From Anaerolineae bacterium (GTDB lineage Bacteria; Chloroflexota; Anaerolineae; Aggregatilineales; Phototrophicaceae): a stretch of DNA of 64,000 nucleotides. A model generated the notes under the pieces. That model saw nothing but the letters and a program-made list of their open reading frames with translations. It was not told where the DNA came from and searched no databases. The stretch is from positions 6,105 through 70,104 of the forward strand of contig DAOTVP010000088.1 in NCBI GenBank assembly GCA_034436155.1, in the 5' to 3' direction. Positions 1,924 through 57,247 of this stretch are shown here, one piece after another (positions within the stretch are counted from its first letter, which is position 1; each line of letters begins with the position of its first letter). Both the position numbers and the translations under genes were made by a program.

Positions 1924-1956
1924 GGGACGATTAGCGCGTAGCGCGTCTATCGTCCC
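1924..1956. repeat. Two-tier REP-like hairpin (TA...GT.T orientation)
   Basis: GGGACGAT-ta-GCGC-gta-GCGC-gtct-ATCGTCCC, between livG and the SBP gene. Confidence 0.8.
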
Positions 1957-2026
1957 TGAATGACAAGACACACAGATTAGCGTTTTTGATGCCTGTAGCG
2001 CCAAGCCACAGTGTTCAAATCGCTTT

Positions 2027-3379
2027 TTACGATTCGGGCGTTGCCGCGGGCTCCATCATTTCCATTTCCATCAACATGGGTGTGAAATCGGCATCTAATT
2101 CGCACCGTGGCGAGAGTTCCGCCCGTAATGCCTCATCCGCCAAGAAGGGGAAGGGGCATGGGGGCATGGTGTCGAATGCCGAAACAGTCCCCAACAAATC
2201 ATAGAAGGCGAAATCGGGGCTATCGAGGTTGGTCAATTGGGCGATATACATCGGCACCATCACTTGGTGATCAGACGGGCGGATGTAATACGTGCCTTTG
2301 GGTCCCTCGAATACCAGACCTTCGAGCGCGGGAATCATGCTATCGGGCAGGGTATCACCACCTGTGGCTTCGAGCGCGGCGACCATCGCTTGGGCAGTCG
2401 CAAACGCGCATTCGGTGAACAAATCTGGCACATCGTTATACATGGCACGATGATTTTCGACCAACCAGTCGTTGACTTCGGTTTGTGGGAAGGTGTAGTG
2501 ATACACGATATAAGCCACACTGCCGATGGTGCTGGGGTCACTGGCGGCGACAATATCATTCGAGTTGAACGCGCCGATGACGGTCATGCTATCATTCACG
2601 CCCTGGCTTTCGACTTGTTGGAACAAGGTCACGCTGGCTGTGCCTGCATAAATGGGGAGCAACACTTCTGCGCCACTGGCAACCGCTTCGGCGAGGTAGG
2701 GGGTGAAATCGGTGGCATCGGGGGGGATGAGGATGGTATCACGCACAAAATTGACACCCTTCGCGCCCAAAATCGCTTGGAACGCGCCTGCTGTACCCAG
2801 ACCAAAGTCATTTTGAGTCGCCATAATGACCCAGTTCGAGCCAAGTTCCAACGCGAAAGCACCGAGCGCAAACGCATCTTGGGCGGCGCTACGGCACACA
2901 CGGAAGGTGTTTTTATTAAAGAAGCGACCCGTAATATCGGGCGAGGCACCAGGCGCGGCGAATAAGATCACTTCTTGTTCCAACGCCACTTGTTGCAAGC
3001 CGATGGTGACAGTCGAGCTAGGCGCACCGACCAATAATTCCACCCCATCATTTTCGATGAGTTCACGCGCTTGTTGTTGTGCCGTCTCTGCGACACCCGC
3101 ATTATCACGCACAATCACCTCAACGGGGCGACCAGCAACTCGCACATCGGCAAGGGCGGCATCAACACTGTCATAATCTTGTGGATTCACACCTGTCGCA
3201 TACAGCAAACCGAGTTTGAAACCATATTCCAGTTCAATCCCGTAAATGGTGAGCAAACCGCTTTGGTCTACCATCAAGCCGACTTTAATGGGTGAATCAT
3301 CTTGGGCGACTGATGACCCCAATCCCACGCTCATCACGAACAGAATGACGGTCATCAATACAAAAATAGACTTACGCAT
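2027..3379 (-). CDS. ABC transporter substrate-binding protein (LivK / amino-acid-amide type), secreted
   Basis: Start at ATG 3379 (MRKSIFVLMTVILFVMSVGLGSSVAQ signal peptide) with AGGAG 8 nt upstream. Periplasmic-binding-protein type I features and liv operon context. Confidence 0.82.
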   Translation of the reverse strand: MRKSIFVLMTVILFVMSVGLGSSVAQDDSPIKVGLMVDQSGLLTIYGIELEYGFKLGLLYATGVNPQDYDSVDAALADVRVAGRPVEVIVRDNAGVAETAQQQARELIENDGVELLVGAPSSTVTIGLQQVALEQEVILFAAPGASPDITGRFFNKNTFRVCRSAAQDAFALGAFALELGSNWVIMATQNDFGLGTAGAFQAILGAKGVNFVRDTILIPPDATDFTPYLAEAVASGAEVLLPIYAGTASVTLFQQVESQGVNDSMTVIGAFNSNDIVAASDPSTIGSVAYIVYHYTFPQTEVNDWLVENHRAMYNDVPDLFTECAFATAQAMVAALEATGGDTLPDSMIPALEGLVFEGPKGTYYIRPSDHQVMVPMYIAQLTNLDSPDFAFYDLLGTVSAFDTMPPCPFPFLADEALRAELSPRCELDADFTPMLMEMEMMEPAATPES

Positions 3380-3472
3380 ACTTTTCTCCTTAAAAAATAA
3401 AAAATCACAATATTTCGGCACGACAGGCATGTTGAAAGCCTGTTTCACCTACACGGTTGTGTGTGGGGATTT

Positions 3473-4537
3473 TTATCCCTTCAGATGAGCATGGAGCAAT
3501 CGATTAAATTCATCGGGCTTCTCCATATACAAGATATGCCCCGCATCGGCGATGACCACTTCTTGATAGTCGCCACCGTGTGCCTTGTATTTCTCCAGAA
3601 ATGTGCGCGTTTGCGTGAGCATCGGCTGGGGTGGAAAAACATCCTCGCCCGGATAATTGGGTATCATCGGTACATAACCGAGTTTCGCCAATCCGCCAAT
3701 ATCGCGTAACGATAAATCCGATACGACCACATCTTTTTCGCCCCGAATCCACAGGATGTTATGTTTGGGTGATTTATCGAATAGCGGGGCATAATCGGGG
3801 ACATATTTTCGGCTGATGGCATTATTTGGACCCCAAATGCCAGGCGCAACATACGGATAATTCGGCGATGGCACCATATCGCCAGGGAAGGCTTTATCGC
3901 CCAAATGGATAGATAACAACGCTTCGAGCCATTGATCTTCATATGGATTTTCATACCCCGCCACGAATAACCCACGCAAGACATTGCGAGGCGAAAATGG
4001 GCTATCGGCGCTTCTATCCCCTGCGCCCAGCAATTGCACGAAGGTCGGATTCACCAACCCCGCGCCACCGCCCGCGAAATCGTCATAACACGGCGTACCA
4101 TCGGCATCTTTACTGCCACCGAAGCCATACGGCGAGCCAGGGTTGACCACCGTCACGGATAAAAAGCGATCTGGCGCATCCAATAATAATTGCCAGATAA
4201 TACTGCCACCCAACGAAATCCCGACCACATGCACTTTTTGATGACCAAGCGTGTCGAGCAATGCCAACGCATCATCGGCAAAATCGCCCATGCCACGAGT
4301 CGCATCAATTTTGACCGCACGGTCGGCATCGCCGTAGCCACGCTGGTCGGGCGCAATCCCCAAAAATCCGCGAGGGAGCGCCAGCATGACAGGCTCCCAC
4401 CATGTCGCCGATGAACTATTGCCATGTAAAAAGAGGACAGGTACGCCATTATCATCGCCCGAAAATAAAACACGGGTTGTCAGGCGTGGGGTGGTGATGG
4501 TCTTGGCACGGATGCCATCTAACACAGATACAGGCAT
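3473..4537 (-). CDS. Alpha/beta-fold hydrolase
   Basis: 354 aa. HGNSSS oxyanion-hole region and nucleophile elbow GISLGG (G-x-S-x-G). Confidence 0.78.
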   Translation of the reverse strand: MPVSVLDGIRAKTITTPRLTTRVLFSGDDNGVPVLFLHGNSSSATWWEPVMLALPRGFLGIAPDQRGYGDADRAVKIDATRGMGDFADDALALLDTLGHQKVHVVGISLGGSIIWQLLLDAPDRFLSVTVVNPGSPYGFGGSKDADGTPCYDDFAGGGAGLVNPTFVQLLGAGDRSADSPFSPRNVLRGLFVAGYENPYEDQWLEALLSIHLGDKAFPGDMVPSPNYPYVAPGIWGPNNAISRKYVPDYAPLFDKSPKHNILWIRGEKDVVVSDLSLRDIGGLAKLGYVPMIPNYPGEDVFPPQPMLTQTRTFLEKYKAHGGDYQEVVIADAGHILYMEKPDEFNRLLHAHLKG

Positions 4538-4917
4538 AATTTTAGTTTCCCCCTGTATGCTTAAAAAACAAATTTTTTGTAACTAATTTACTGTTTGATT
4601 ATAACCGCATCTGCCAAACCACGCCATGAATCCATTTGTGCAACATAGCACAACTTGGATGATGATAATGTACGAAAATGATAGTTTTTGATAGTTATTA
4701 TGCGCTAATCATTTCGCCGTGTGCGACCAGCGCCTCATAAATGCTTTTCGCCCAATGGCGCACACGGTCTGGATACCCCGTTATATCGCTCCCCATCGCT
4801 AAAGCGAGGGGTTTTACGGTGTTTTTGATAAACAAAAAAATCTCATCGTCTGAGATTAAAATAGACAATTATTTGTATGGGACGCCTTGTATTTCGATAA
4901 CAATGAAAGGACAGTGT

Positions 4918-5955
4918 ATGTTGAAGAAAATGTTGAGTATCATCATGATTATCGTCATGTTCACGATGATGAGTGGCGTATTTGCCCAAGAAGGAGAGCG
5001 TATGGCAAACCCGATCCGCCGCGATTATCACCCCATTTCACACGTCGAATTGGTCAAAGAAGGTGATGACCTGTTCCTCATCCTCAAAGGTGAATTGCGC
5101 GATGGTTGTGATTATCCCGCCAATATCCAAATCGAGCGTGTTGGCACAACCTTGTTTGTGGATATGTACCGCGAATTGCCGTTTGATGTGATGTGTCCGA
5201 TGGTGTTGCTCGGTTACGAAGAAAAAATCGCCGTCAACGACCTATACGCGACCGAAGGCGATATGCCCGATGTGCGCGTGGTCGTCATCAATGGGGTGCT
5301 TTTCGGTGTCGATCGCTTCGATGCGCATATGCCCGCCTTAAATCTGTTATGGGTGCGTGGTGTGTTGCCTGTGGATAGCATTACCGTTTCATCTACTGAA
5401 ACCGATGAGAAGCAAATCACGTTGGGCGGAACATTGACCGATGGTTGTGCTGTGCCGATTTATCGCGCTGTCCCAGATTGGCAAAACGAAGGCTTTACCG
5501 TCATCGAAGCATACATGGGCATCCCGTTGAATGCCAGTTGCTTGCAAATCGAAGAACGTTATGAGGGGACTATGCTCACCGCGCCGATGACCAGTTGCGC
5601 CGTGAATGGGGTGGTTGTTCCTTATAATCCAGATAACCCAGAATCACAAGCGTTTCGTGTTGAAGCCATGAGTATCACCAATGTCAGCGCCGAATGGGAA
5701 GATAGAGCCTTATCGCCCAATGTCAAAATCATCGTGTCGGGGATTGTAGACGGTTGCGAAGACCCGATTTCTATCGCGCCGCAACTCACGGGTGATAACA
5801 CCTACGTGGTACAAGTGGTGCGCGTGTTGCCAACCGATGCGGTCTGCACCATGATAGCCCGCGATTTCACCCAAACATTCATGTTTGCCCCTCTTTTACA
5901 AGGGGACGCGCCTCTCACCGTGATCATCGGCGAGCAGATGATTACCCTGCCATAA
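4918..5955 (+). CDS. Secreted hypothetical protein with three internal Cys-pair repeats
   Basis: Start chosen at ATG 4918 (MLKKMLSIIMIIVMFTMMSGVFAQ signal peptide). Three modules each contain G.L.DGC..P ... C (DGCDYPANIQ / DGCAVPIYRA / DGCEDPISIA). Confidence 0.6.
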   Translation: MLKKMLSIIMIIVMFTMMSGVFAQEGERMANPIRRDYHPISHVELVKEGDDLFLILKGELRDGCDYPANIQIERVGTTLFVDMYRELPFDVMCPMVLLGYEEKIAVNDLYATEGDMPDVRVVVINGVLFGVDRFDAHMPALNLLWVRGVLPVDSITVSSTETDEKQITLGGTLTDGCAVPIYRAVPDWQNEGFTVIEAYMGIPLNASCLQIEERYEGTMLTAPMTSCAVNGVVVPYNPDNPESQAFRVEAMSITNVSAEWEDRALSPNVKIIVSGIVDGCEDPISIAPQLTGDNTYVVQVVRVLPTDAVCTMIARDFTQTFMFAPLLQGDAPLTVIIGEQMITLP

Positions 5956-5978
5956 CATCGTGAGGGGGATATGCCCCC

Positions 5979-6422
5979 TCATGATGTTTCTGTACGATTC
6001 GGATGTTTTTCGGGTTCTTCTTTGAACAGCAAATCCAACGCTTCATCGCGTTTTTCGCCATACAAATAAAACGTTTTATCACCCGTGTTCAACAATTGGA
6101 TGAACGATTGCAAAATACGGTGCATCACACCCTGATTTTCGCTCCCCATAAAGACATAACGTATCGGTTTGGGGCGATTCGGATATTTCTTGACCAATTC
6201 TTGCGCCTTGCGAAAGGCATGATTAAGCGGTGGTTGTCTGGTTTGGGTGGTATCTACCAACACTTTGATTTGAGTATAAGGTGGTAATTGATACAATTGT
6301 TCTATATACTCAAACCATTCATCCAAAGCCGCACGATTAGCTTCTTTGAAGATGAATTCATAAAAATGGTTGTCATGTTGGATGATGTCCATGTATTGCG
6401 GTGGGGTGGTAATGTTAAGCAT
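5979..6422 (-). CDS. Hypothetical protein, tandem paralogue 1
   Basis: 147 aa. Clearly alignable by eye with the neighbouring 144-aa ORF (TPPQY..IQ.DNHFYEFIFK...KKYPNRPKP.R.VF). Confidence 0.6.
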   Translation of the reverse strand: MLNITTPPQYMDIIQHDNHFYEFIFKEANRAALDEWFEYIEQLYQLPPYTQIKVLVDTTQTRQPPLNHAFRKAQELVKKYPNRPKPIRYVFMGSENQGVMHRILQSFIQLLNTGDKTFYLYGEKRDEALDLLFKEEPEKHPNRTETS

Positions 6423-6550
6423 GTAAGATACTTTCTGTGATGTATACCTGGATTACAATCATCAGTATAACAAGGTAAGTTATAATGATGTATGAAAAAT
6501 TCCTGAATTTTCACTAAGACAATGATGCCAGTGGGATGCACCCCAAATGA

Positions 6551-6985
6551 TTAGATAGATTTTTTGGGATGCAAATGCGGTTCTTTTTCAAATAGAAAAT
6601 CGAGCGCCTGCTCTCGTTTATTGCCATACAGATAAAGAGTGGTATCGCTTGTACTGAGCAATTGCACTAAGGATTGCAAAATGTGATGCAATGCCCCCTG
6701 ATTTTCGCTTTCTACAAATACAATTCGCATCGGCTTGGGGCGATTGGGATATTTTTTGATCAACTCCTTCGCATGACGAAAGGCATATGTGAGGGGAGGC
6801 TGATGTTGGGTGCTATCAATTAATACCTTCACAATCGTATCAGATGGCAACTGAAACAACTGCTCCATGTAGATAAACCATACATCTAATGTGGCGCGAG
6901 ACCCCTTTTTGAAGATGAATTCATAAAAATGGTTGTCATATTGGATGAGCTCTAGGTATTGTGGGGGTGTTTCGATGGTTAGCAT
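6551..6985 (-). CDS. Hypothetical protein, tandem paralogue 2
   Basis: 144 aa, paralogue of 5979..6422. Confidence 0.6.
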   Translation of the reverse strand: MLTIETPPQYLELIQYDNHFYEFIFKKGSRATLDVWFIYMEQLFQLPSDTIVKVLIDSTQHQPPLTYAFRHAKELIKKYPNRPKPMRIVFVESENQGALHHILQSLVQLLSTSDTTLYLYGNKREQALDFLFEKEPHLHPKKSI

Positions 6986-7066
6986 AGGATTATAATCACT
7001 TTCAGATTGACACGGCTAATTTATAACTATTCTATAACAATCTGTATCAGAAAGTCTGAATTTGTC

Positions 7067-8302
7067 ATGAATTTTTCGCTCTCCTATCTCATCCATTCGA
7101 TTCGCCTCACCCTAAAATGGATCTTATTGGGGATGGTCGTAGGCATCCTATCAGGTAGCGCCTCGGCGCTGTTTTTAATCACGCTGGAATGGATGACCAA
7201 CACGCGCCTCGCCAACGGTTGGTTACTCTTTTTACTGCCGATAGCGGGTTTCGGCGTAGGGTATATCTATCATCATTATGGCGGACGCGCCAAGGGAGGC
7301 AATGCACTGGTGATAGACGAGGTGCATAACGATGTAGACCGCATCCCGCTCCGTATGGCTCCGTTTGTGTTAATCGGCACGCTCATCACGCACCTGTTTG
7401 GCGGGTCGGCAGGGCGCGAAGGCACTGCCATTCAGATGGGCGCGAGTTTAGCCGATGGCGCACGCCGTTTATTCGGATTAAATGGGGATGACCGCCGTTT
7501 GATGTTGCTGGCGGGCATCAGTGGCGGGTTTAGCAGTGTGTTCGGCACGCCGATAGCGGGATTCATCTTCGGGATGGAAGTGGATAGCATCGGCAAGGTG
7601 CGTTACGAGGGCATCATCCCCTGTCTCACATCCGCCATCGTCGGCGATTTGGTCACACGGGCATGGGGCGCAACCCATTCGCATTATCCACTCGCGCCGA
7701 TTATCCCACTGGATAGCCTGTTCATCCTCAAAATTGCGGTGGCGGGCGTGCTATTTGGTTTGACCAGTCGCCTTTTTGTGTTGGGGATAAAATTCGTCAA
7801 GCGTGTTTTATCCAACATCGCTTATCCACCGTTGCGCCCGATGGTCGGCGGGGTGGCGGTGATTCTATTGACGCTGATAGTCGGCAATGCCGATTATTTA
7901 GGTCTGAGTTTGCCCCTCATCCAAAGCAGTGTCCGCGCAGAAAATGTCTTTTTAGGCGCGTTTTTGCTGAAACTGATATTCACCGTTGTCACATTGGGCA
8001 GTGGATTTTTGGGTGGTGAAGTGACCCCGTTGTTCGTCATCGGCAGTACGTTGGGGTATGCGCTCGGCGTGATTTTGGGGATAGACCCCGCACTCGTGGC
8101 GATGGTCGGGTTTGTGGCGGTGTTCGCCGCATCCAGCAACACGCCAATCGCCTGTATTTTTATGGGTATCGAATTATTCGGCGGGAACATCGGCTTAATC
8201 ACGGTGGTGGGGTGTATGGTCGCCTATCTGGTCAGTGGACATGAGGGGATTTATCATACCCAACAGGTCGCCACGCGCAAGGCAGGGCGTAGTTCGGTAT
8301 AA
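7067..8302 (+). CDS. CLC-family anion channel/antiporter, CLC-F-like (possible F-/H+ antiporter)
   Basis: Multi-TM protein. GSAGREGTAIQ (gating-Glu motif with Thr instead of Pro), GGNALV where canonical CLCs have GSGIP, and GGEVTPLF where they have GxFxP. Start placed at ATG 7067. Confidence 0.8.
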   Translation: MNFSLSYLIHSIRLTLKWILLGMVVGILSGSASALFLITLEWMTNTRLANGWLLFLLPIAGFGVGYIYHHYGGRAKGGNALVIDEVHNDVDRIPLRMAPFVLIGTLITHLFGGSAGREGTAIQMGASLADGARRLFGLNGDDRRLMLLAGISGGFSSVFGTPIAGFIFGMEVDSIGKVRYEGIIPCLTSAIVGDLVTRAWGATHSHYPLAPIIPLDSLFILKIAVAGVLFGLTSRLFVLGIKFVKRVLSNIAYPPLRPMVGGVAVILLTLIVGNADYLGLSLPLIQSSVRAENVFLGAFLLKLIFTVVTLGSGFLGGEVTPLFVIGSTLGYALGVILGIDPALVAMVGFVAVFAASSNTPIACIFMGIELFGGNIGLITVVGCMVAYLVSGHEGIYHTQQVATRKAGRSSV

Positions 8303-8326
8303 GGGTATGTGTAAATGATTGGCACA

Positions 8327-8361
8327 GGGACGATATACGCGCCGATGGCGCTAATCGTCCC
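8327..8361. repeat. Two-tier REP-like hairpin (ATAC...TA orientation)
   Basis: GGGACGAT-ataC-GCGCC-gat-GGCGC-ta-ATCGTCCC. Confidence 0.85.
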
Positions 8362-8380
8362 GTACAGGTTATAAGCGAGT

Positions 8381-8598
8381 AGGGGCGGATTAGGCGAAGC
8401 CGTATATCCGCCCTATGATACGGAAATTTTTAGGTGTGTAGGGGCGGATTAGGCGAAGCCGTATATCCGCCCTATGATACGGAAATTTTTAAGTGTGTAG
8501 GGGTGGATTAGGCGAAGCCGTATATCCGCCCTATGATACGGAAATTTTTAGGTGTGTAGGGGTGGATTAGGCGAAGCCGTATATCCGCCCTGTGATTA
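8381..8598. repeat. Tandem array, 59-bp period, about 3.7 copies, each unit carrying one two-tier REP-like hairpin
   Basis: Units start at 8381, 8440, 8499 and 8558: aGGGGCGGATtaGGCgaaGCCgtatATCCGCCCtatgatacggaaatttttaggtgtgt. Copies 3 and 4 have a C->T change in the outer stem. Lies between the convergent clc and fhs genes. Confidence 0.92.
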
Positions 8599-8615
8599 GG
8601 CAAAATCGCTACCCA

Positions 8616-10319
8616 TCAGAACAACCCGACCACATTCCCATTTTCATCAATATCCACGCGATGCGCGGCGGGGTCTGCGCCGAGACCGGGCATGGTACTC
8701 ATATCACCGCACAACGGATAAATAAATCCCGCGCCCACGCTGGCACGCACTTCTTTAATCGGCAATCTGAACCCTGTCGGAGCGCCTTTCAATTTCGGGT
8801 CGGCAGAAAAACTGAGGTGCGTTTTCGCCATACAAATCGGCATATTGCCGAAACCATTTTTCTCGAAATTGGCGATTTGCGCCTCAGCTTCGGGCGTATA
8901 ATCCACGCCATCCGCCCGATAAATTTCGCGGGCGATGGTCTCTATTTTGCGTTTAATATCCCACTCAATATCGTATAAAAATCGGAATTGGCTCGGACTT
9001 TCTGCCGCGCTGACGACCATCTCCGCCAGTTCAATCGCACCACGTCCGCCATCGGTGAAATGCCGTGATACGGCGCATCCATTCGCGCCACTGGCGAGGG
9101 CAATCTCGCGCACGGCATCAATTTCGGCTTGGGTGTCATCGGGGAACACGTTAATCGCCACCACAGGCGTGACATCGAATTTGGCTAAATTTTCGAGATG
9201 CCGAATCATATTCACCGCGCCCGCCTCGACATCGGCGACATTTTCAGTGATGAGCGCGGGGTCGAGTGGTTTGCCAGGGACAATTTTATACTTGCCCGTA
9301 TGCGCTTTGAGGGCGCGAATCGTCACGACCAACACGGCGGCATCGGGCGCGAGTTCGCTGGCGCGACACTTGATATTGAAAAATTTTTCCGCGCCAATAT
9401 CCGCGCCAAAACCCGATTCGGTGATGACATATTCGCCACAATGTAACGCGAGTTGATCTGCGAGTACCGATGAATTGCCGTGCGCGATATTCGCAAACGG
9501 ACCGCAATGCACCACCGCGGGCGTATTTTCCAGTGTTTGCATCAGATTCGGCTTAATCGCATCGCGCAGAAGCACTGTCGCCGCGCCCGCCGCGCCAATA
9601 TCTTCCGCCGTGACCGGTTTTTTATCTTTATCATACGCCACCACCATCCGCCCAATGCGTTGACGCAAATCGCGTAGCGAGGTGGTGAGCGCCAAAATCG
9701 CCATAATTTCGCTGGCGACGGTAATATCAAACCCTGTCTGACGGGGGATACCATCCAACCGCCCGCCCAAACCGATAATCACATTTCGCAGGGCGCGGTC
9801 GTTCAAATCCACGACTCGTCGCCACGAAATGTTGTGAATATCAATATTGCGCGGGTTGCCGTGATACAAATGGGCATCCAACAGCGCCGCAATCAGATTA
9901 TGCGCCGCGGTGATGGCGTGGATGTCGCCCGTCAGGTGCAGGTTAAAATTTTCCATCGGCACGACTTGGCTATAACCACCGCCCGCCGCCCCGCCTTTGA
10001 TGCCGAATGTCGGACCTTGCGAGGGTTGGCGGATGGCGATAATCCCTTTTTTGCCGATATGCTTAAACGCTTGCCCAATCCCGACAGTTGTGGTGGTCTT
10101 GCCTTCGCCTAACAGGGTAGGGGTGATGGCGGTCACATCGATATATTTGCCTTTAGGACGCGATTGTAATTTTTGGATGGTCTCTAGCGGGATTTTGGCG
10201 ATATATTTGCCGTAGTGTTCGAGGTCGGTTTGCGGGTCGAGACCCATTTCTTCTGCAATTTGGTTGATATGCACCAATTTGGCACGTTGAGCAATCTCTA
10301 AATCCGATGGAAATGTCAT
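8616..10319 (-). CDS. fhs: Formate--tetrahydrofolate ligase
   Basis: 567 aa. N-terminus MTFPSDLEIAQ.AKL..I, P-loop region TPTLLGEGKTTTTVG. Full-length FTHFS layout. Confidence 0.95.
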   Translation of the reverse strand: MTFPSDLEIAQRAKLVHINQIAEEMGLDPQTDLEHYGKYIAKIPLETIQKLQSRPKGKYIDVTAITPTLLGEGKTTTTVGIGQAFKHIGKKGIIAIRQPSQGPTFGIKGGAAGGGYSQVVPMENFNLHLTGDIHAITAAHNLIAALLDAHLYHGNPRNIDIHNISWRRVVDLNDRALRNVIIGLGGRLDGIPRQTGFDITVASEIMAILALTTSLRDLRQRIGRMVVAYDKDKKPVTAEDIGAAGAATVLLRDAIKPNLMQTLENTPAVVHCGPFANIAHGNSSVLADQLALHCGEYVITESGFGADIGAEKFFNIKCRASELAPDAAVLVVTIRALKAHTGKYKIVPGKPLDPALITENVADVEAGAVNMIRHLENLAKFDVTPVVAINVFPDDTQAEIDAVREIALASGANGCAVSRHFTDGGRGAIELAEMVVSAAESPSQFRFLYDIEWDIKRKIETIAREIYRADGVDYTPEAEAQIANFEKNGFGNMPICMAKTHLSFSADPKLKGAPTGFRLPIKEVRASVGAGFIYPLCGDMSTMPGLGADPAAHRVDIDENGNVVGLF

Positions 10320-10951: not shown

Positions 10952-10967
10952 ATATGGTGCATCGCTG

Positions 10968-11000
10968 TGGACGACATACGCCCTGCGGGCTAGTCGTCCA
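10968..11000. repeat. Two-tier REP-like hairpin between convergent genes
   Basis: TGGACGAC-ataC-GCCC-tgc-GGGC-ta-GTCGTCCA. Confidence 0.8.
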
Positions 11001-11090
11001 TTACAGGTTGCCTCGTTTGATAGGCGAGTATCAAGACGCGGGATTTATTGGGATGATAGATAATCTGTGGGGCAGATACGCCCCACACGA

Positions 11091-21073: not shown

Positions 21074-21274
21074 CGAAGGAGCGCCTTCATCCCATCCGAA
21101 GGCGCTTCTTCGTTTTATAGTCCCGCCATCGGTTCAAAACCGATGGCTAGTCGTCTTTGAAGCCCACTGAAGGGGCTTGGTCTCACCTGTTTTTGAGGAT
21201 AAATCTATTTTATAGCGGGTTTGAGCGCCTTTAGTGCGCTTGATGCGACTAGCGAGATGCTCAAAGCATCTCGC
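21074..21274. repeat. Cluster of five unrelated stem-loops in one intergenic region
   Basis: Hairpins at 21074-21112, 21125-21147 (GCCATCGGTT-caa-AACCGATGGC), 21160-21178, 21224-21240 and 21252-21274 (GCGAGATGC-tcaaa-GCATCTCGC). Confidence 0.7.
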
Positions 21275-21289
21275 GCTACTGATGTCAGA

Positions 21290-22321
21290 TTAGTTTGGTG
21301 CGCTAAAAGTGATGATCGCGCCTTCGCCTTCGGCAGAGACGGCATTCACCGATACCACATACGAGCCATCGACCGGGTTTTTAGCGATGCTATACGGAAA
21401 ATTCAGTCCCGTCAGCACAGGGATAACGCCATCGGGTGTGATAGCGACCACGCCACCGCTATCGGCTTGCCAACCGCCCGCCTGCGGATTAAATTCGCCG
21501 TAGACCACCGCCAACAAGACCCCGCCGTCATCGAAGATGACATCGGTCAACAGGCTTAACCCTTCATACGTCATGACGAGTTCATCGCTGGCGCTATCAT
21601 ACACTTCGATACGCGCCGCACCACTCAAGAACGGGAAGCCCGTCAAAAAGCTGACGGCATATTGGCTACCATCTTCATTATAAGCAACCGCCGTTGGGAC
21701 GGGGTTGCCTTCCCACGCCTTCACCACATCCAACGCGCCGTCAAAACTGGCACGATACAGTGTGTTGCCACTGGCATCGACAATCAGGGCGCTCATGCCA
21801 TCGGGCGCGAGCGCGATACTGGTTGGGTTAGAGAGCAATTCGCCCGTGCCATCGGGATCGTATTGATGTTCATAACCGAAGGGGTCAAAAATCATCTGTG
21901 GGCGCAGGCTGATGCGGTCATACGATACGACTGTGCCAGCCAGTGTCACGCCTTTCATCTCATGACCCATCACCACCCATAGGCTATCCGCCGTTGGAAC
22001 GACATCCATCGCGCCAACGATTTCGCCACCCATGTTCATGCTGGGCAGGTAATCAATCACCACGCTGGCTTCACCATCCACCACCGCCGAAATGCGTGCC
22101 GTGTTGCCATACATCGCGGGACCAAACGGACCCTCGATTTCGGTCTCGCCACCTAAGCCCGCTTCCGCCACATACAGCACGCCGTTGTCATCAAAATTCA
22201 AGCCACGCGGGTTGTTCAATCCATCCGCCAAGACGGTGTAATCCAAATCTTGTGCAAAATTGGGCAACACGCCAATCATCAATAGAGCGAGTATCGTAAA
22301 CAGTGTAAATTTGGTACGCAT
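21290..22321 (-). CDS. Secreted beta-propeller protein (ScyD/NHL-like)
   Basis: Start at ATG 22321 (MRTKFTLFTILALLMIGVLPNFAQD). Motif LADGLNNPRGLNFDDNGVLYVAEAGLGGE. Family assignment is tentative. Confidence 0.6.
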   Translation of the reverse strand: MRTKFTLFTILALLMIGVLPNFAQDLDYTVLADGLNNPRGLNFDDNGVLYVAEAGLGGETEIEGPFGPAMYGNTARISAVVDGEASVVIDYLPSMNMGGEIVGAMDVVPTADSLWVVMGHEMKGVTLAGTVVSYDRISLRPQMIFDPFGYEHQYDPDGTGELLSNPTSIALAPDGMSALIVDASGNTLYRASFDGALDVVKAWEGNPVPTAVAYNEDGSQYAVSFLTGFPFLSGAARIEVYDSASDELVMTYEGLSLLTDVIFDDGGVLLAVVYGEFNPQAGGWQADSGGVVAITPDGVIPVLTGLNFPYSIAKNPVDGSYVVSVNAVSAEGEGAIITFSAPN

Positions 22322-22482
22322 AAGGCTATTCTCTCCTGTGTTATTGGTAAAAAGGGACATACGTCCACATTTAGCATACGCCAAATAACGGAATATAACA
22401 ATAGATGATAAATAAGCGTATATTTTGGATTGAGGCAAGGTCTAGCTTATCTGTACAAAACCGCTCCTGTGATGAATCGTAG

Positions 22483-22517
22483 TGGCGGATTAGCGCCAAC
22501 GGCGCGTATATCCGCCA
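22483..22517. repeat. Two-tier REP-like hairpin (TA...GTAT orientation)
   Basis: TGGCGGAT-ta-GCGCC-aac-GGCGC-gtat-ATCCGCCA. Confidence 0.85.
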
Positions 22518-22554
22518 TACCCATGATGGTGATGTATGTTGCGCGTGAATTGGC

Positions 22555-22743: not shown

Positions 22744-22789
22744 GGATATACAACAGGGATAATATATGCGCTTCTGTGCCAAACAAAAA

Positions 22790-22822
22790 GGGACGATATA
22801 CGCGCTTCGCGCTAATCGTCCC
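22790..22822. repeat. Two-tier REP-like hairpin (ATAC...TA orientation)
   Basis: GGGACGAT-ataC-GCGC-ttc-GCGC-ta-ATCGTCCC. Confidence 0.85.
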
Positions 22823-22912
22823 CTACCGATGATGATAATTGTTAGGGTGCGTACTGGCAGATTAACACCGTCAGGTGTGTATATCCGCCATTCTGCATCC
22901 CAAAGGCGTGCT

Positions 22913-33158: not shown

Positions 33159-33184
33159 ATTCCATCCTATTTGATTTTATCAGA

Positions 33185-33213
33185 GGGCGGATATACGCTT
33201 CGCTAATCCGCCC
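33185..33213. repeat. Two-tier REP-like hairpin (ATAC...TA), first half of an inverted doublet inside the hox operon
   Basis: GGGCGGAT-ataC-GC-ttc-GC-ta-ATCCGCCC. Confidence 0.85.
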
Positions 33214-33243
33214 CTACACGCTTAAAAATTTTAGGAGCTGTAC

Positions 33244-33276
33244 GGGACGATTAGCGCCAAGCGCGTATATCGTCCC
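33244..33276. repeat. Two-tier REP-like hairpin (TA...GTAT), second half of the inverted doublet
   Basis: GGGACGAT-ta-GCGCc-aa-GCGC-gtat-ATCGTCCC. The spacer ctacacgcttaaaaattttaggagctgtac resembles the spacer in the 8.4-kb array. Confidence 0.85.
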
Positions 33277-33317
33277 TAAATATGCCATGATTTGTACCTG
33301 TTATTTGGAGATTTTTT

Positions 33318-35211: not shown

Positions 35212-38064
35212 ATGACCATCCGACGCGCTCATATCACCATCAGGGGCATCGTGCAAGGAGTGGGATTTCGCCCGTTCATCCATCGGCTGGCGCATCAAGC
35301 CCAGTTGACGGGGTGGGTGAATAACACCGCGCAAGGGGTGGTCATCGAAATAGAAGGGGATGAGTATCTCATCCAACATGTTTTAGGGCGCATCCGAACC
35401 GAATTGCCACCTCATGCCCATATCGCCGATATGCAGGTGATGTACATCCCCCCTATTGGCGATAGCGATTTCATCATCGAAAAAAGTGCCGATGACGGCG
35501 CAAAAACGGCGTACATCCTCCCCGATTTGGCGATGTGTCCCGATTGCCTGCGCGAAATGACCGACCCGCATAATCGGCGTTATCGCTATCCGTTCATCAA
35601 TTGTACGCATTGCGGACCGCGCTATAGCATCATGACCGATTTGCCCTACGACCGCCCGAATACGACCATGCGCGAGTTTGTCATGTGTGCCGATTGCCAG
35701 CGTGAATATGACGACCCCGCCGATAGGCGTTTTCATGCCCAACCGATAGCCTGCCCCGTGTGCGGACCGCATATCGCGTTATGGGATGCCGATGGACAAA
35801 TTTTAGCCACCCATCACGAGGCGATCATCGCCTGTGCCGATGCGTTACGGGCGGGGAAGATAATCGCCCTCAAGGGCTTGGGCGGGTTTCATCTGCTCGC
35901 CGATGCGACCAATCCAGACGCGATCCACACATTGCGCCAACGCAAACATCGCCCGCATAAACCATTTGCCGTCATGTTTTTGCATATGGATGAGATTCGC
36001 CGTTGGTGTGTGGTGGATGATGTGGCACAGGATTTGCTCACATCCCCCGAAGCGCCGATTGTGTTGTTGGAGAAGCGGATTTATCCCCACGCTCTAACCC
36101 CTGCAGATGAGGAGCATCCCCACGCTCTAACCCCTGCAGATGAGGAGCATCCCCACCCCCTAACCCCCTCCCCACTTCGTGGAGAGGGGGGATGGCATGA
36201 TAATCCACCACATACCCCCCCTTTCTCCATGCAATGGGGAAAGGGGGCAGGGGGGATAGGGGACGATTTACTCGCACCAGACAACCCCACGCTCGGCGTG
36301 ATGCTTCCTTATACACCGCTCCATCACCTGTTGCTATCCGAATGTGGCTTCCCGCTCATCGCCACCAGTGGCAACCGCGCCGATGAGCCGATTTGTACCG
36401 ATGAATACGAGGCGCTCACCCGTCTGCGCGGGATTGCCGATTTGTTTCTGGTGCATAACCGACCCATCCAGCGTCCGATAGATGATTCGGTAGTGCGCGT
36501 CATGGCGGGGCGGGTGATGATGATACGCCGTGCGCGGGGTTATGCGCCACTGCCGATAAAACAACCCCACCCCCTAACCCCCTCCCCAAAAATTGGAGAG
36601 GGGGAACAGCATGATAATTCGTCAAATACTCCCCCTTTCTACATGCAATGGGGAAAGGGGGCAGGGGGGATAGGGGACACGACTTTAGCCGTTGGCGCAC
36701 ACCTCAAAAATGCGGTAGCGATACGGCGCGGGGATGATATTTTCATCAGCCAACATATCGGCGACCTCTCTACCGCAGGCGCACATCATCATTTTGAACA
36801 GACCATCGCCGATTTATCCGCCATGCTCGATGTGCATCCGCAAAAAATTGTGTGCGATGCCCATCCCGATTACGCCTCGACCACCTACGCCCATCAAAGC
36901 GGGTTGCCTATCCGCAAAATTCAGCATCATTACGCCCATGCGTTGGCGTGTTTGGCAGAAAACGGCGTGGAATTGCCCGCGTTGGCGGTCGTCTGGGATG
37001 GCACAGGTTACGGTGATGATGGCACGATTTGGGGCGGTGAATTTTTGCGATTGACCCGTAACAGTTATGAACGGGTGGCGCATGTGCGACCGTTTCCGTT
37101 GATTGGCGGAGATAGCGCCGTGATAGAACCGCGCAAAACGGCGCTTGGTTGGTTGTATAGCTTGCTCGGAGATGCGATTTTTGACGATGAACAATACGCG
37201 CCCGTCCGACAATTCACACCCGACCAACGGCGTGTGTTGCGCCAGATGGTGCAGAAAAAGGTGAACTGTCCGATGACGAGTAGCATGGGGCGCTTGTTCG
37301 ATGCGGTTGCTTCGCTCATGGATGTGTGTCATGTGATGACGCATGAAGCGCAGGCGGCGGTGATGCTCGAATATTTGGCTTCGCAACCCCACCCCCTAGC
37401 GCCGATAAATGGAGAGCGACCCCACCCCCTAGCGCCTATGAATGGAGAGCGACCCCACCCCCTAGCCCCCTCCCCACTTCGTGGAGAGGGGGAACAAAGA
37501 AATTTTTATCCTATGTGGGATGACGAGGCGCTGAAGGGGCTAAAATCTGATATACAGATGTCAATATGTTCAGGTGATAAGGTATCATCACAATCTCAAT
37601 ATGACAATCCAATCGGTGAACACCCCAGCCCCTTGAGTGGGCTTCCAAATTCGATAGCGAGGGGTTTTGAACCCCTCGCGGGGCATCCAACGGCGCAAAC
37701 AAGTCCCCTCTCCATGCAGAGTGATGAGGCGCAAACAAGTCCCCTCTCCATGCAATGGGGAGGGGATTTAGGGGTGGGGTTGCTCACATCGCTCATGGCG
37801 GATATAAACGCGGGCATCCCCAAAACGGTGATAAGCCATAAATTTCATGTTACACTTATAGAGATAATCATCCACACCGCGCAACGCATCGGCGAGAGGC
37901 GCGTTTTGCTCACAGGCGGGTGTTTTTTGAATAAACCCTTGCTCGAAGGCGCGATTATTCGCCTACGCGAGGCGGGATTCATCCCCTATTGGCATTCCCA
38001 AGTCCCGACAGGCGATGGCGGGATATGCTTCGGGCAGGCGGTGGCGTGGATGTTATCATCATGA
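35212..38064 (+). CDS. hypF: [NiFe]-hydrogenase maturation carbamoyltransferase HypF, expanded by three in-frame repeat insertions
   Basis: Acylphosphatase domain (ITIRGIVQGVGFRPF). Two Zn fingers (CPDC...CTHCGPRYS; CADC...CPVCGP). YrdC-like ALKGLGGFHLLADA. Kae1-like C-terminus. Start ATG 35212. About 950 aa, whereas my recollection of typical HypF is roughly 750-800 aa. Confidence 0.9.
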   Translation: MTIRRAHITIRGIVQGVGFRPFIHRLAHQAQLTGWVNNTAQGVVIEIEGDEYLIQHVLGRIRTELPPHAHIADMQVMYIPPIGDSDFIIEKSADDGAKTAYILPDLAMCPDCLREMTDPHNRRYRYPFINCTHCGPRYSIMTDLPYDRPNTTMREFVMCADCQREYDDPADRRFHAQPIACPVCGPHIALWDADGQILATHHEAIIACADALRAGKIIALKGLGGFHLLADATNPDAIHTLRQRKHRPHKPFAVMFLHMDEIRRWCVVDDVAQDLLTSPEAPIVLLEKRIYPHALTPADEEHPHALTPADEEHPHPLTPSPLRGEGGWHDNPPHTPPFSMQWGKGAGGIGDDLLAPDNPTLGVMLPYTPLHHLLLSECGFPLIATSGNRADEPICTDEYEALTRLRGIADLFLVHNRPIQRPIDDSVVRVMAGRVMMIRRARGYAPLPIKQPHPLTPSPKIGEGEQHDNSSNTPPFYMQWGKGAGGIGDTTLAVGAHLKNAVAIRRGDDIFISQHIGDLSTAGAHHHFEQTIADLSAMLDVHPQKIVCDAHPDYASTTYAHQSGLPIRKIQHHYAHALACLAENGVELPALAVVWDGTGYGDDGTIWGGEFLRLTRNSYERVAHVRPFPLIGGDSAVIEPRKTALGWLYSLLGDAIFDDEQYAPVRQFTPDQRRVLRQMVQKKVNCPMTSSMGRLFDAVASLMDVCHVMTHEAQAAVMLEYLASQPHPLAPINGERPHPLAPMNGERPHPLAPSPLRGEGEQRNFYPMWDDEALKGLKSDIQMSICSGDKVSSQSQYDNPIGEHPSPLSGLPNSIARGFEPLAGHPTAQTSPLSMQSDEAQTSPLSMQWGGDLGVGLLTSLMADINAGIPKTVISHKFHVTLIEIIIHTAQRIGERRVLLTGGCFLNKPLLEGAIIRLREAGFIPYWHSQVPTGDGGICFGQAVAWMLSS
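36083..36263 (+). mobile_element. G/C-rich hairpin MITE-like element, copy A, in frame inside hypF; left end triplicated (2 x 33 bp)
   Basis: 33-bp tandem atccccacgctctaacccctgcagatgaggagc at 36083-36115 and 36116-36148. Then a 113-nt core at 36151-36263: CCCCACCCCCTAA..CCCCTCCCCActtcgTGGAGAGGGG..CCCCCTTTCTCCATgcaATGGGGAAAGGGGG..GGGGGGATAGGGGA. Confidence 0.8.
36565..36677 (+). mobile_element. G/C-rich hairpin MITE-like element, copy B, in frame inside hypF
   Basis: 113 nt, colinear with the copy A core. Ends and both hairpin stems are identical; differences are confined to the loops and the central spacer. Confidence 0.8.
37387..37779 (+). mobile_element. Composite 393-nt element (131 codons), copy C, in frame inside hypF
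   Basis: Left end CCCCACCCCCTAG (present three times through a 33-bp tandem duplication, 37387-37452). Right end TAGGGGTGGGG at 37769-37779, an inverted repeat of the left end. Internal hairpins CCCCTCCCCActtcgTGGAGAGGGGG and CCCCTCTCCATgcaATGGGGAGGGG. A 36-bp tandem duplication at 37692-37763. Confidence 0.8.
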
Positions 38065-46880: not shown

Positions 46881-47794
46881 TTACTCTAATAATATCCCTC
46901 TCAACCGCGCCACTGCATCCGCGTTAAATCCCAAGCGTGACTCGGCATACGCTATCACCCCGCCATACTCGTCATCTAAATAATGGAACACTGCCCGCAT
47001 CGTATCGGGGTGGGCGGCTAATATCGGGAATAAATTGGCGCTATTCAGGTGCAAAAATGCCAATCGCTTTAACAACCGATGAGCGATCTGTTCGTAATGA
47101 TGATAAAAATGGTTGCTCTGGGTATAATCGGCGACAATCCGCTCCTCTGGCACGCCCAACAACGCCAATATCAACGCGACTATCACGCCTGTGCGGTCTT
47201 TGCCCGCCGTACAGTGGATGAGCATGGGATAATTCGCCTCATCGAGCATCAGGTGCATCATCCGTTTGATGGCGGGGGCGTTTTCTTCGAGGATGATGCT
47301 GGTATACAGTTGGGGCAATAATCCCTCTAATTTTCGTGGATTAAACAGCAACAACCATAACCGCTTGGCTTTATCGCCTTCGGTTGCCATGTTGAGTGTC
47401 TCGTGACGCACGCCGTCAAATCGCGGGTCGGGGTCGTTGATGATTTCGTCCTCACTCCGCAGATCGCATATCAGGCACGGTTGGAGCGCCGATAATGCCG
47501 TTTTGCCGTTGAGGGTGATATACGACAGGCTGGCGGAACGATACACCTTGCCCGTTTTCACGGTGTGATTATCCGATGTGGTCATCCCGCCGATGTCGCG
47601 CACATTCACAACCCCTTCGATGGGGATGAATTGCGTATTGGTGGGGATAATCAGGCTTTCGGGCGCGGGGTAGGGGATAGGTCGGCGCACACGCCACAGG
47701 GTGATGCCGATGAACAGCGCACACGCCACAGGGTGATGCCGATGAACAGCGCCAACGCCATGAGGATAATCAGGATGAGCCAGACAACAGTCAT
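46881..47794 (-). pseudogene. Membrane-anchored protein-tyrosine phosphatase (CX5R), frameshifted by a 32-bp tandem duplication
   Basis: Catalytic loop HCTAGKDRTG. The true ATG at 47794 encodes MTVVWLILIILMALALFIGITLWRV, then the frame is lost at the duplication and reading stops at TGA 47653-47651. The long ORF continues in a different frame. Confidence 0.7.
47686..47749. repeat. Perfect 32-bp tandem duplication
   Basis: cgcacacgccacagggtgatgccgatgaacag at 47686-47717 and again at 47718-47749. Confidence 0.95.
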
Positions 47795-52524: not shown

Positions 52525-52539
52525 AAGGATGGTGGCATC

Positions 52540-53379: not shown

Positions 53380-53384
53380 AGCAC

Positions 53385-55742: not shown

Positions 55743-55760
55743 TATTTTAACCGTAAAAAA

Positions 55761-55872
55761 TCCCCCATCCCCAGCCCTTCCCCCATCGAATAGGGGAAGG
55801 GGGTAAAAACCACCTTTGAGGTAGGATTTTAGCCTCCTCTCCATGCAATGGGGAGGAGGTTGGGGGTGGGGA
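55761..55872. mobile_element. G/C-rich hairpin MITE-like element, intergenic copy E
   Basis: TCCCCCATCCCCAGCC ... CCCTTCCCCcatcgaataGGGGAAGGG ... CCTCCTCTCCATgcaATGGGGAGGAGG ... GGTTGGGGGTGGGGA, with inverted termini. Confidence 0.75.
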
Positions 55873-55897
55873 TAATCGATTCAAGAAAGGATACACG

Positions 55898-57136
55898 ATG
55901 AAAAAACTAACTTTACTTTGCATACTTATCTTCACACTAGGATTAACCGCCGTGAGCGCACAAGACGACACCAAAATCCCACAACTGCCTAGCGAAGGCG
56001 CATTTTTCACGGGTGAATATCGCAATATCTTATCGGAATGGGGGTTATCGGATGAAGAAATCCAAACCCGCATTGATGAAACATTCCAGCAATTGTTTTA
56101 TGGCGATGACGACAACGAGCGCGTGTATTACGAACTCGGTGATGACATGGCGTATATCGTCGACATCAACAACAACGATATTCGCACCGAAGGCATTTCG
56201 TATGGCATGATGATCACCGTCCAGATGGATAAAAAAGCCGAATTTGACCGCCTCTGGAAGTGGGCATATACCCATATGTATCACAAAGAGGGTCCGTGGG
56301 CGGGGTATTTCTGTTGGCATACCCGCCTAGACGGGACATGTATCGACAACAACCCCGCATCCGATGGTGAAATTTGGTATGCCACCGCGCTATTTTTTGC
56401 CTCTGCCCGTTGGGGTGATGGTGAAGGCATTTTTAATTATAAAGAATATGCCCAAACCATCCTCAACACCATGATTCATCAAAAAACTGCCCTCGCCACA
56501 CCGACATTCGACCCCGAAACCAAGTTAGTGGTGTTTGTGGCGCAAATTGGAGAGGTGAGCCAATTCACCGATCCATCGTATCAAGCGCCTCATTTTTATG
56601 AAATTTGGGCGCGGTTAGCCACGCAAGATAACGAATTTTGGCAAGAAGCCATCCAAGCCGCCCGTGAACATTGGCGTAATGCCGCCCATCCCGTCACAGG
56701 GTTGATGGCGAATTATGCTGAATTCACAGGTGAACCGCGGGATTGGGGTGGTAGTGATTATGGCGGTGTGTATTATGCCGATGCGTGGCGCATTGGCATG
56801 ATGGTGGCGCTGGATTACATCTGGTTTGCCCCAGACCAATGGCATGTCGAACAGAGCAACCGCTATCTGCGCTTCTTCCACGATTTAGGCATCGGGCGCT
56901 ATAACAGTCGCTTCTTGATTGATGGCACGCCACAGGGCTTTCAACATCGTTCTACGGGGCATATCGCCACCAACGCCGTTGCCACCCTCGCGTCTACCGA
57001 GCCGTTTGTGTGGGATTTCCTCGAAGAATTTTGGAATACGCCCATTCCGACAGGACAATATCGGTATTATGATGGATTGTTGTATATGATGGCGTTGTTG
57101 CAGACCAGTGGCAATTTTAGAATTTATATGCCATAA
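55898..57136 (+). CDS. GH8 glycoside hydrolase (xylanase / exo-oligoxylanase-like) with signal peptide
   Basis: EGISYGMMI catalytic-acid region and GH8 signature-like ASDGEIWYATALFFASARW. Signal peptide MKKLTLLCILIFTLGLTAVSAQ. Confidence 0.78.
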   Translation: MKKLTLLCILIFTLGLTAVSAQDDTKIPQLPSEGAFFTGEYRNILSEWGLSDEEIQTRIDETFQQLFYGDDDNERVYYELGDDMAYIVDINNNDIRTEGISYGMMITVQMDKKAEFDRLWKWAYTHMYHKEGPWAGYFCWHTRLDGTCIDNNPASDGEIWYATALFFASARWGDGEGIFNYKEYAQTILNTMIHQKTALATPTFDPETKLVVFVAQIGEVSQFTDPSYQAPHFYEIWARLATQDNEFWQEAIQAAREHWRNAAHPVTGLMANYAEFTGEPRDWGGSDYGGVYYADAWRIGMMVALDYIWFAPDQWHVEQSNRYLRFFHDLGIGRYNSRFLIDGTPQGFQHRSTGHIATNAVATLASTEPFVWDFLEEFWNTPIPTGQYRYYDGLLYMMALLQTSGNFRIYMP

Positions 57137-57151
57137 CGCCTATTCATTTTG

Positions 57152-57187
57152 TGGCGGACATACAAGGCTAAAGCCTTTAGTCCGCCA
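57152..57187. repeat. Two-tier REP-like hairpin (ATAC...TA)
   Basis: TGGCGGAC-ataC-AAGGCT-aa-AGCCTT-ta-GTCCGCCA. Confidence 0.85.
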
Positions 57188-57213
57188 TTACACCCAAACT
57201 GGATATACTGTAA

Positions 57214-57247
57214 TGGCTGACTAGCCCGTTAGGGCGTATGTCAGCCA
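57214..57247. repeat. Two-tier REP-like hairpin (TA...GTAT), forming an inverted doublet with 57152..57187
   Basis: TGGCTGAC-ta-GCCC-gtta-GGGC-gtat-GTCAGCCA. Confidence 0.85.

Follow-up and report, generated by a model that had tools for sequence, protein, structure and literature searches.

The window analysed here, a 64,000-nucleotide stretch of contig DAOTVP010000088.1 from an Anaerolineae bacterium (Chloroflexota), carries 15 copies of a small two-tier hairpin that we interpret below as a repetitive extragenic palindromic (REP) element of a system with a REP-associated tyrosine transposase (RAYT). The copies sit at six intergenic sites (1855-1960, 8323-8594, 10964-11005, 22478-22894, 33181-33280 and 57148-57251). 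About 86% of the window is coding and none of the 15 copies falls within a called gene, the whole load of 15 copies per 64 kb being confined to the non-coding ~14%. Ten copies form five inverted doublets whose tags face inward, 21-32 nt apart, two are singletons, and at one site the right half of a doublet has been amplified head to tail. Judged from the contig gene calls and the map of open reading frames (ORFs), co-directional genes flank four of the six sites and convergent genes the other two, with no site between divergent genes. A preliminary description of the window, which had placed most copies at gene 3′ ends or between convergent genes, was thus right that all are intergenic, but convergent pairs account for only two of the six sites.

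The family stands out clearly from chance. A strict scan of both strands for an 8-bp outer stem with at most one mismatch, TA, 5-23 nt, GTAT and the second arm returned 13 copies in the window, against a mean of 0.22 and a maximum of 2 in 100 dinucleotide-preserving shuffles. An anchor-only scan for GTA-N-8nt-TA...GTAT-8nt, in which pairing was not demanded, gave 23 matches, 12 with all 8/8 outer pairs and one with 7/8; the others resemble the shuffled background, and the shuffles yielded 0 at 8/8 and 0.02 at 7/8. Since fully paired copies are recovered by a scan that does not demand pairing, the pairing is not an artefact of how the copies were collected. The covariance model R1, a type of model that the preliminary description had suggested, was built from 39 distinct copies of the window and related loci; run on the window with filters off, it found 15 copies at 44-63 bits, the next best match scoring 12 bits. 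The dispersed family that had been proposed by eye is therefore real, and R1 confirms the copies then listed while adding a degenerate partner at 1855-1899(-) that had been overlooked. Rfam 15 gave no match at gathering score across the window and none at E<=1 over 8300-8620, a tRNA/tmRNA scan of the window found none, and a blastn search of a plasmid collection with one REP doublet as query found no match.

The first doublet (1855-1960) is flanked by minus-strand Peripla_BP and ABC_tran genes and joins the degenerate copy at 1855..1899 (-; R1 44.2 bits; GGGCGGGT/ATCCGCCC) to one at 1919..1960 (+; 52.2 bits; GTAA-GGGACGAT). The second opens a cluster (8323-8594) between convergent CLC-channel and FTHFS genes and consists of copies at 8323..8366 (-; 59.3 bits; GTAC-GGGACGAT) and 8378..8417 (+; 50.2 bits; GTAG-GGGCGGAT); the latter is also unit 1 of the head-to-tail array, continued at 8437..8476 (+; 54.4 bits), 8496..8535 (+; 50.4 bits) and 8555..8594 (+; 47.5 bits), where units 3 and 4 carry GGGTGGAT and one G.T pair each. 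This amplification (8378-8594) has a 59-bp period, each unit being a REP plus a 28-nt linker that resembles half a doublet spacer, and Tandem Repeats Finder reports 3.7 units at 8379..8596 (+; score 408, 97% matches). A CRISPR reading of the array was ruled out, the 'spacers' being identical between units (97% matches over the full period). The singletons lie at 10964..11005 (-; 53.0 bits; GTAA-TGGACGAC), between convergent NUDIX and SH3_3 genes, and at 22478..22521 (+; 53.6 bits; GTAG-TGGCGGAT), with an alpha-amylase gene upstream and the ORF 21290-22438(-) adjoining, the REP being upstream of that ORF. Close by, the third doublet pairs 22786..22827 (-; 58.5 bits; GTAG-GGGACGAT), the sole copy with a T-run after it, with 22850..22894 (+; 47.2 bits; GTAC-TGGCAGAT, one A.C mismatch). 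The fourth occupies the hoxY-hoxH junction, with halves at 33181..33218 (-; 52.4 bits; GTAG-GGGCGGAT, short inner stem) and 33239..33280 (+; 63.2 bits; GTAC-GGGACGAT), and the fifth (57148-57251) lies between GH8 and AP_endonuc_2 genes, both on the plus strand, with halves at 57148..57192 (-; 51.9 bits; GTAA-TGGCGGAC) and 57209..57251 (+; 55.2 bits; GTAA-TGGCTGAC).

Anatomy and covariation of the hairpin

Read in its own orientation, a copy comprises TGTA-N, an 8-bp outer arm, TA, a 3-6-bp G/C inner stem with a 3-4-nt loop, GTAT and the second 8-bp arm, the hairpin measuring 29-36 nt. The GTA of the 5′ tag directly abuts the stem in 15/15 window copies and in 92 of 109 copies overall; the '(t)gtac-like motif' that had been noted in the flanks is thus present but is actually this fixed tag, TGTA-N. 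Its fourth base follows the order C > G > A, with G in 7/15 window copies and 36/109 overall. On folding as DNA, TA pairs with the TA inside GTAT, so that the G and the T become 1-nt bulges on the 3′ side, and for single copies the folding energy is between -11 and -14 kcal/mol (z-scores from -3.7 to -6.3). The one departure from an invariant TA and GTAT is the doublet at 1855-1960, where both halves have GTCT instead of GTAT; this paired change may be compensatory within a long hairpin formed by the whole doublet, or one half may have been copied from the other.

In the alignment of the 39 distinct copies 98.3% of cells are paired, and compensatory changes on both sides occur in 10 of the 12 modelled pairs. 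The covariation score of 0.586 compares with 0.156 for shuffled columns and with 0.016-0.113 after displacement of the partner by 1-3 columns. Copies were never selected on their inner helix, which is 96.6% paired and covaries at 4/4 pairs, and the earlier claim that the inner stems covary is borne out. The further claim that both arms always change together agrees with the compensatory pairs but is slightly overstated, the exceptions being the G.T pair of array copies 3-4, the A.C mismatch of the 22850 copy and the degenerate 1855 copy. It had also been proposed that selection acts on the structure and on TA/GTAT rather than on stem sequence; structure, tag and bulges are indeed kept, but 4/8 outer pairs are invariant (pairs 2 and 7) or nearly so (pairs 3 and 6). 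The tag, the TA/GTAT bulges and four stem pairs therefore stay fixed while the other stem positions covary.

Among all GTAN-tagged copies of the window and the related loci, tag base 4 and the base that immediately follows the outer stem on its 3′ side also covary (mutual information 0.71 bits, reached by 0/300 shuffles). The combinations, tag base first, are C/T, G/G, G/T and A/C, almost never a Watson-Crick pair, and this could be subfamily hitch-hiking or a need to keep the tag unpaired. A guide function, in which base 4 pairs with a flanking cleavage dinucleotide, is unsupported as simple complementarity, the combinations being non-Watson-Crick. One possibility is that the variable base, covarying with the base that faces it, tunes the choice of cleavage site; tag-related tuning of this choice has reportedly been shown with engineered Marinomonas REPs.

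The hoxY-hoxH junction, related genomes and a RAYT-type gene

Orthologous sites were reached through homologues of HoxH, the closest named of which belong to Phototrophicales/Anaerolineae metagenome-assembled genomes (MAGs). In three related loci (L075, L076 and L079; HoxH 89-94% identical) 12-13 nt separate the stop codon of hoxY from the start codon of hoxH; the window junction measures 159 nt and holds, within the operon of the hox hydrogenase, a REP doublet. The closest relative (L078; HoxH 97% identical) has a junction of 194 nt, with a REP doublet within shared flanks, and its subtypes are TGGACGAC + TGGCGGAC as against GGGCGGAT + GGGACGAT in the window. The two doublets differ by eight coordinated substitutions in 16 stem positions, and because the genomes are so close, replacement or re-insertion at a REP site explains the junction better than stepwise compensatory mutation does. 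Since the junction subtypes point to replacement or re-insertion, the family-wide covariation mostly reflects proliferating subfamilies, each keeping the hairpin; despite this subfamily origin of the covariation, structure, tag and bulges are what is selected. No target-site duplication is seen when the filled and empty hoxY-hoxH sites are compared.

The same family recurs in related genomes. An exact-pattern scan of one genome per species with the commonest variant found 18 loci spread over four MAGs, all Chloroflexota/Anaerolineae wherever a name below phylum rank is given, and a second variant was found in 42 metagenome contigs; R1 detects 68 copies in the four-MAG set of loci and 51 in the metagenome set. 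The REPs of these relatives share stems identical to those of the window, and their usual unit is a doublet of ~98 nt that consists of a GGGACGAT-type REP, the spacer GTACA..AAAATTTT..TGTAC and a KGGCGGAT-type REP. Doublets of this length occur in four other Anaerolineae MAGs in both orientations and with a partly conserved spacer, as expected if the doublet is itself the copied unit, that is, a REP doublet forming hairpins (REPIN). The window and the pattern-derived loci show no synteny by tblastx.

A transposase gene adjoins the repeats in some of these loci. Two REP-adjacent ORFs of the metagenome loci match Pfam Y1_Tnp above threshold (23.4-26.6 bits, cut-off 23), and a Y1 HUH gene of RAYT type is bracketed by the same REPs in L069, L068 and L059, in support of the RAYT-like transposase that the preliminary description had envisaged. 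One of the proteins, P0001 (from L036), is encoded in MAG DAOTUO01, where window-type REPs are present as well (L004, L014); locus L069 of this MAG reads REPs (-)(-)(+) at 4951-5129, ORF259, the RAYT at 6001-6492 and REPs (-)(-)(+) at 6492-6664. A second protein, P0002, is 74% identical to P0001 and lies on a 1.6-kb contig (L068) of run SRR11582161, in the order REP doublet, ORF257, RAYT, REP doublet, where the flanking REPs are of the subtype found at window 57148-57251, including the right half at 57209..57251. Window proteins match contig JBBIQP010000009.1 (GCA_037442285.1) exactly and also match contigs from run SRR11582161, and P0002 and the window HoxH share one source pattern, namely one NCBI contig (46,905 bp for P0002) and one Logan contig. 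In L059, a more distant case, REPs at 620-780 and 1388-1432 bracket the RAYT ORF.

The assignment of these proteins to the RAYTs draws on several comparisons. The best family is NCBIfam REP_Tyr_transpos (NF047646), at 60-77 bits compared with 17-19 bits for IS200, and the residues of the HUH and Y-x-x-x-N-P motifs (H76, H78, Y148, N152 and P153) do not vary among 23 sequences and line up with those of E. coli RayT. P0002 alone found no match among the Protein Data Bank (PDB) sequences; a profile of 34 homologues gave a single match there, 4ER8 (TnpA-REP bound to REP, E 2.5e-7). The fold predicted by AlphaFold (pLDDT 88.9) has only Y1 transposases (IS200/IS605 or RAYT) among its 30 best matches, and of these 4ER8 gives the highest TM-score, 0.61. 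A phmmer search with E. coli RayT against the six-frame ORFs of the window and the first 20 loci returned nothing.

Inside the REP-bounded unit the RAYT is preceded by a conserved ORF of 257-259 aa (L068 180-953; L069 5183-5962), whose C-terminal half matches a PADLOC TIR effector model at an E of about 1e-15 and, weakly, Pfam Nuc_deoxyrib_tr. The two-gene module has 34-37% G+C, compared with 46-47% in the flanking genes of L069, and is equally low on L068; the more distant L059 RAYT is without the TIR-like neighbour. RAYTs are typically single-copy in a genome and vertically inherited, and so low a G+C content is unexpected for a long-resident gene. The unit might be recently active and possibly horizontally moving, rather than old, vertically inherited and domesticated. 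Four observations invite this tentative idea, which we think rather unlikely: RAYT and TIR-effector-like gene travel together between the bounding REPs, their G+C content in L069 is ~10 points lower than that of the surrounding DNA, the REP load differs sharply between close relatives, with 15 copies in the 64 kb of the window and none in three syntenic loci of 19-21 kb each, and one orthologous site holds differing subtypes where HoxH is 97% identical. Further small tagged hairpins were seen beside the L059 RAYT (GGGCGCGATGCATCGCGCCC-CTAC, 1307-1340) and adjoining the L078 doublet (GTAC-GGACGCG-CTTCT-GCGCGTCC, 8104-8128), and these may be extra REP families served by the same or another RAYT.

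Interpretation, rival explanations and known systems

We conclude, with a probability of roughly 85%, that the hairpins are REP elements of the GTAG-tagged superfamily, mostly arranged as REPIN-like inverted doublets with one cluster like a bacterial interspersed mosaic element (BIME), and that they belong to a REP-RAYT system of Anaerolineae (Chloroflexota). The REP/REPIN-like interpretation of the preliminary description is supported by the 5′ GTA-N tag on an imperfect palindrome, the inverted doublets, the cluster and the extragenic position of every copy; REPs are known to lie between co-directional and convergent genes, as the window copies do (PMC3733652). The combination of a fixed tag, fixed TA/GTAT and four fixed pairs with an otherwise covarying stem matches published RAYT recognition of folded single-stranded REPs, in which E. 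coli RayT strictly requires GTAG and also requires the mid-stem mismatch bulge (PMC8266576). By analogy with the E. coli, Stenotrophomonas and Marinomonas systems (PMC3333891, PMC3479197, PMC8266576), the element would fold into a hairpin on single-stranded DNA, and the RAYT, a Y1 HUH tyrosine transposase, would bind it strand-specifically via the unpaired 5′ GTA-N tag and the stem irregularity, here presumably the TA/G-TA-T segment with its bulged G and T. The enzyme would then cut beside the hairpin and transfer the strand, giving new copies and rearranged clusters. Only variants that keep hairpin, tag and bulges would stay recognisable, and because only these would persist, subfamilies would come to differ jointly in both arms while tag, bulges and four pairs stay fixed. 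We infer binding and cleavage by the Anaerolineae RAYT, and its current activity.

Several points weigh against this interpretation. The search for a RAYT gene, which the preliminary description had proposed, succeeded in a related MAG and in a contig of run SRR11582161, but neither the window nor the adjoining ~16 kb of its contig contains a Y1_Tnp gene. We infer that P0002 belongs to the window's own genome from the shared run and the shared source pattern, which are circumstantial. The NF047646 scores of the RAYTs fall below the equivalog cut-off of 80 bits, and tag base 4 is variable, unlike the GTAG of E. coli. No REP is found in L075, L076, L079 or a fourth syntenic locus, L077 (19-21 kb each), and REP abundance is therefore lineage-specific.

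A primary role at the RNA level, in which the hairpins are transcribed at 3′ ends or between cistrons and shield upstream mRNA from exonucleases or set differential operon expression, would make the covariation a product of selection on the RNA structure at each site. Every copy has a gene upstream of it or sits between co-transcribed genes, as at hoxY-hoxH, the hairpins are stable and some contain G.T pairs, and secondary roles in mRNA stability and expression have been reported for E. coli REPs (PMC3733652, PMC8266576). Yet copies are found both along and against the direction of transcription, mostly in inverted pairs, there is no Rfam match even at E<=1, and in the 39-copy alignment G.U pairs (7 cells) are no commoner than non-standard ones (8 cells). 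At the hoxY-hoxH junction close relatives differ in subtype and others have no REP, which speaks for insertion or replacement rather than selection in place, and the RAYT association accounts for the invariant unpaired tag. We therefore regard a primary RNA role as improbable; a secondary, exapted mRNA role, for example in the hox operon, is possible.

Two other explanations are far less probable still. That the ~98-nt doublets are miniature inverted-repeat transposable elements, with the REPs as terminal inverted repeats mobilised by a DDE-type transposase with no relation to the adjacent Y1 gene, would fit their inverted-repeat ends and their conserved length across genomes, but no target-site duplication is visible between filled and empty hoxY-hoxH sites, singletons and head-to-tail arrays of half-elements occur, each half is itself a tagged hairpin, and the only transposase adjoining these repeats, in three independent contexts, is of the Y1 RAYT type; we consider such an origin very unlikely. 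Rho-independent terminators that share a sequence family by chance are the least credible of the alternatives: the hairpins are G+C-rich and stand at gene 3′ ends, and the copy at 22786-22827(-) has TTTTTGTTT after the hairpin, but a downstream T-run accompanies only 1/15 copies on either strand, and this absence of T-runs largely refutes the idea. Copies also lie inside operons such as at hoxY-hoxH, and terminators are not known to carry a conserved GTA-N tag on the 5′ side, to pair up as inverted doublets or to form a 59-bp array.

The REP-RAYT reading can be set beside the systems already described. The likeness to the E. coli REP/BIME and RayT system (TnpA-REP; Bertels group 2 / Quentin subclass 2.2; PDB 4ER8) extends to a 5′ tetranucleotide tag that abuts the stem, a G+C-rich outer stem of 7-8 bp, which in many Anaerolineae copies ends ...CGGAT as in E. 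coli, and a conserved mid-stem irregularity, beyond which come a short inner G/C stem and a loop of 3-4 nt; in both, the elements lie outside genes, are grouped into inverted pairs and clusters, and stand on either side of a RAYT gene (PMC8266576). The REPs that flank E. coli rayT have the same layout, GTAG-GxCGGAT-AA-GGCG-loop-CGCC-GC-ATCCGxC. The two differ in that the Anaerolineae irregularity is TA opposite GTAT, with two 3′-side bulges, whereas that of E. coli is an AA/GC mismatch, and in that tag base 4 varies in the Anaerolineae family; R1 scores no more than 5.7 bits in the rayT region of E. coli despite the several REPs there, the Anaerolineae RAYT is 27% identical to E. coli RayT and is without its C-terminal tail, and the host phylum is Chloroflexota. 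On the basis of motif comparison, the RAYTs appear to fit subclass 2.4 (Bertels group 4), whose REPtrons are described from Cyanobacteria, Bacteroidetes and scattered phyla (PMC6006769); the literature consulted describes no Anaerolineae member. Shared traits are the protein motifs NH[F]H, W[QH] and Y-I-x-x-N-P, long REPs with three G-C pairs at the foot in GGG...CCC subtypes, and, in several homologues, insertions between HUH and Tyr, where the subclass has in-frame REP insertions; the published Y motif is YIxNNP, whereas the Anaerolineae proteins have YIAQNP or YIxxNP.

The REPIN-RAYT system of P. fluorescens SBW25 (PMC3116915, PMC3337134) resembles the present one in having an inverted REP pair with a short spacer as the repeated unit, in the recurrence across genomes of doublets of conserved length and spacer in both orientations, and in singletons that look like remnants. 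The halves of an Anaerolineae doublet, unlike those of SBW25, are usually of different subtypes (GGGACGAT with KGGCGGAT), and in this they come closer to the y/z mosaics seen in BIMEs of E. coli. In Chloroflexi, GTAG-tagged REPs are already known from earlier work, as GTAG-23 of Thermomicrobium roseum (PMC3733652), which is compared here by description only. The GTAG superfamily shares the unpaired terminal tag, stems of 6-13 bp with complementary alternative residues, dimers 20-100 bp apart, clusters, and positions between unidirectional or convergent genes (PMC3733652), and in the terms of that work the window doublets are 'TT' dimers, with tags inside; GTA-N with C commonest is not among its listed variants GYAG, GYRG, GTRG, GTMG and GTGG (PMC3733652). 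The subterminal hairpins of IS200/IS605 elements (IS608, ISDra2) are alike in that a Y1 HUH transposase recognises folded single-stranded DNA hairpins with unpaired bases and a 5′ tetranucleotide, and the predicted fold of P0002 matches those transposases; the differences are that the transposase gene is not part of each repeated unit here, that the hairpins are dispersed in many copies, and that REP_Tyr_transpos outscores IS200 as given above.

A full-text literature search found no described RAYT/REPIN family of Anaerolineae. REP/REPIN-RAYT is a well-known type of bacterial repeat, and this Anaerolineae family appears to be undescribed so far; it differs from known REPs in detail (tag base 4, the two-bulge irregularity, heterotypic doublets), not in kind. 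The results extend REP/REPIN-RAYT systems to Anaerolineae with a clean anatomy of fixed tag, two fixed bulges and covarying stems, an anatomy that predicts the nucleotides read by the transposase and makes the family a handy natural 'SELEX' data set for RAYT recognition. The repeats also insert within operons such as hox, and they break short-read MAG assemblies, with contigs ending in doublets and array copy number varying between assemblies.

Assembly differences and other repeats

Short-read contigs of run SRR11582161 start or stop inside REP doublets (L002 at its start, L068 at both ends), and the contig L036/L074 begins with apparent sequencing-adapter sequence (L036 1-57). The 59-bp array has 4 units in the window (8379-8596) and 6 in JBBIQP010000009.1 (L024 5826-6160) of the same organism, and hypF is 24 codons shorter in the window than in L001 (11895-14816) and is without the SPLSMQSDEAQT-type repeats. 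These differences are either repeat collapse in one assembly or real copy-number variation.

A second, unrelated repeat family of ~115 nt forms two hairpins, for example CCCCCTTTCTCCAT-GCA-ATGGGGAAAGGGGG, and has copies at 36140-36270, 36562-36678, 37447-37492, 37741-37785(-), 55833-55873(-) and 60988-61088. Several lie in frame within coding genes: those in hypF encode ...PHPLTPSPxxGEGE...TPPFSMQWGKGAGGIG, and a further copy is in the AMP-binding gene at 59939-61435(-), whereas the one near 55850 is intergenic. Because of the in-frame insertions HypF is 950-974 aa here compared with 776-798 aa in orthologues without full-length insertions (L079, L075); L076 has copies at the same two hypF sites. 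In this the family is reminiscent of the palindromic elements that Rickettsia carries in frame. At 36083-36167, 37386-37466 and 47685-47760 there are tandem repeats of 2.4-2.6 units (period 32-33 nt, 95-96% matches), the first two inside hypF, where they give repeated 11-residue peptides such as PHPLAPxNGER. A third short sequence, at 21119-21275 and near a 15-nt inverted repeat (21074-21112), is shared at 74-84% identity with L014 (400-525), L037 (588-687) and L026 (4286-4424).

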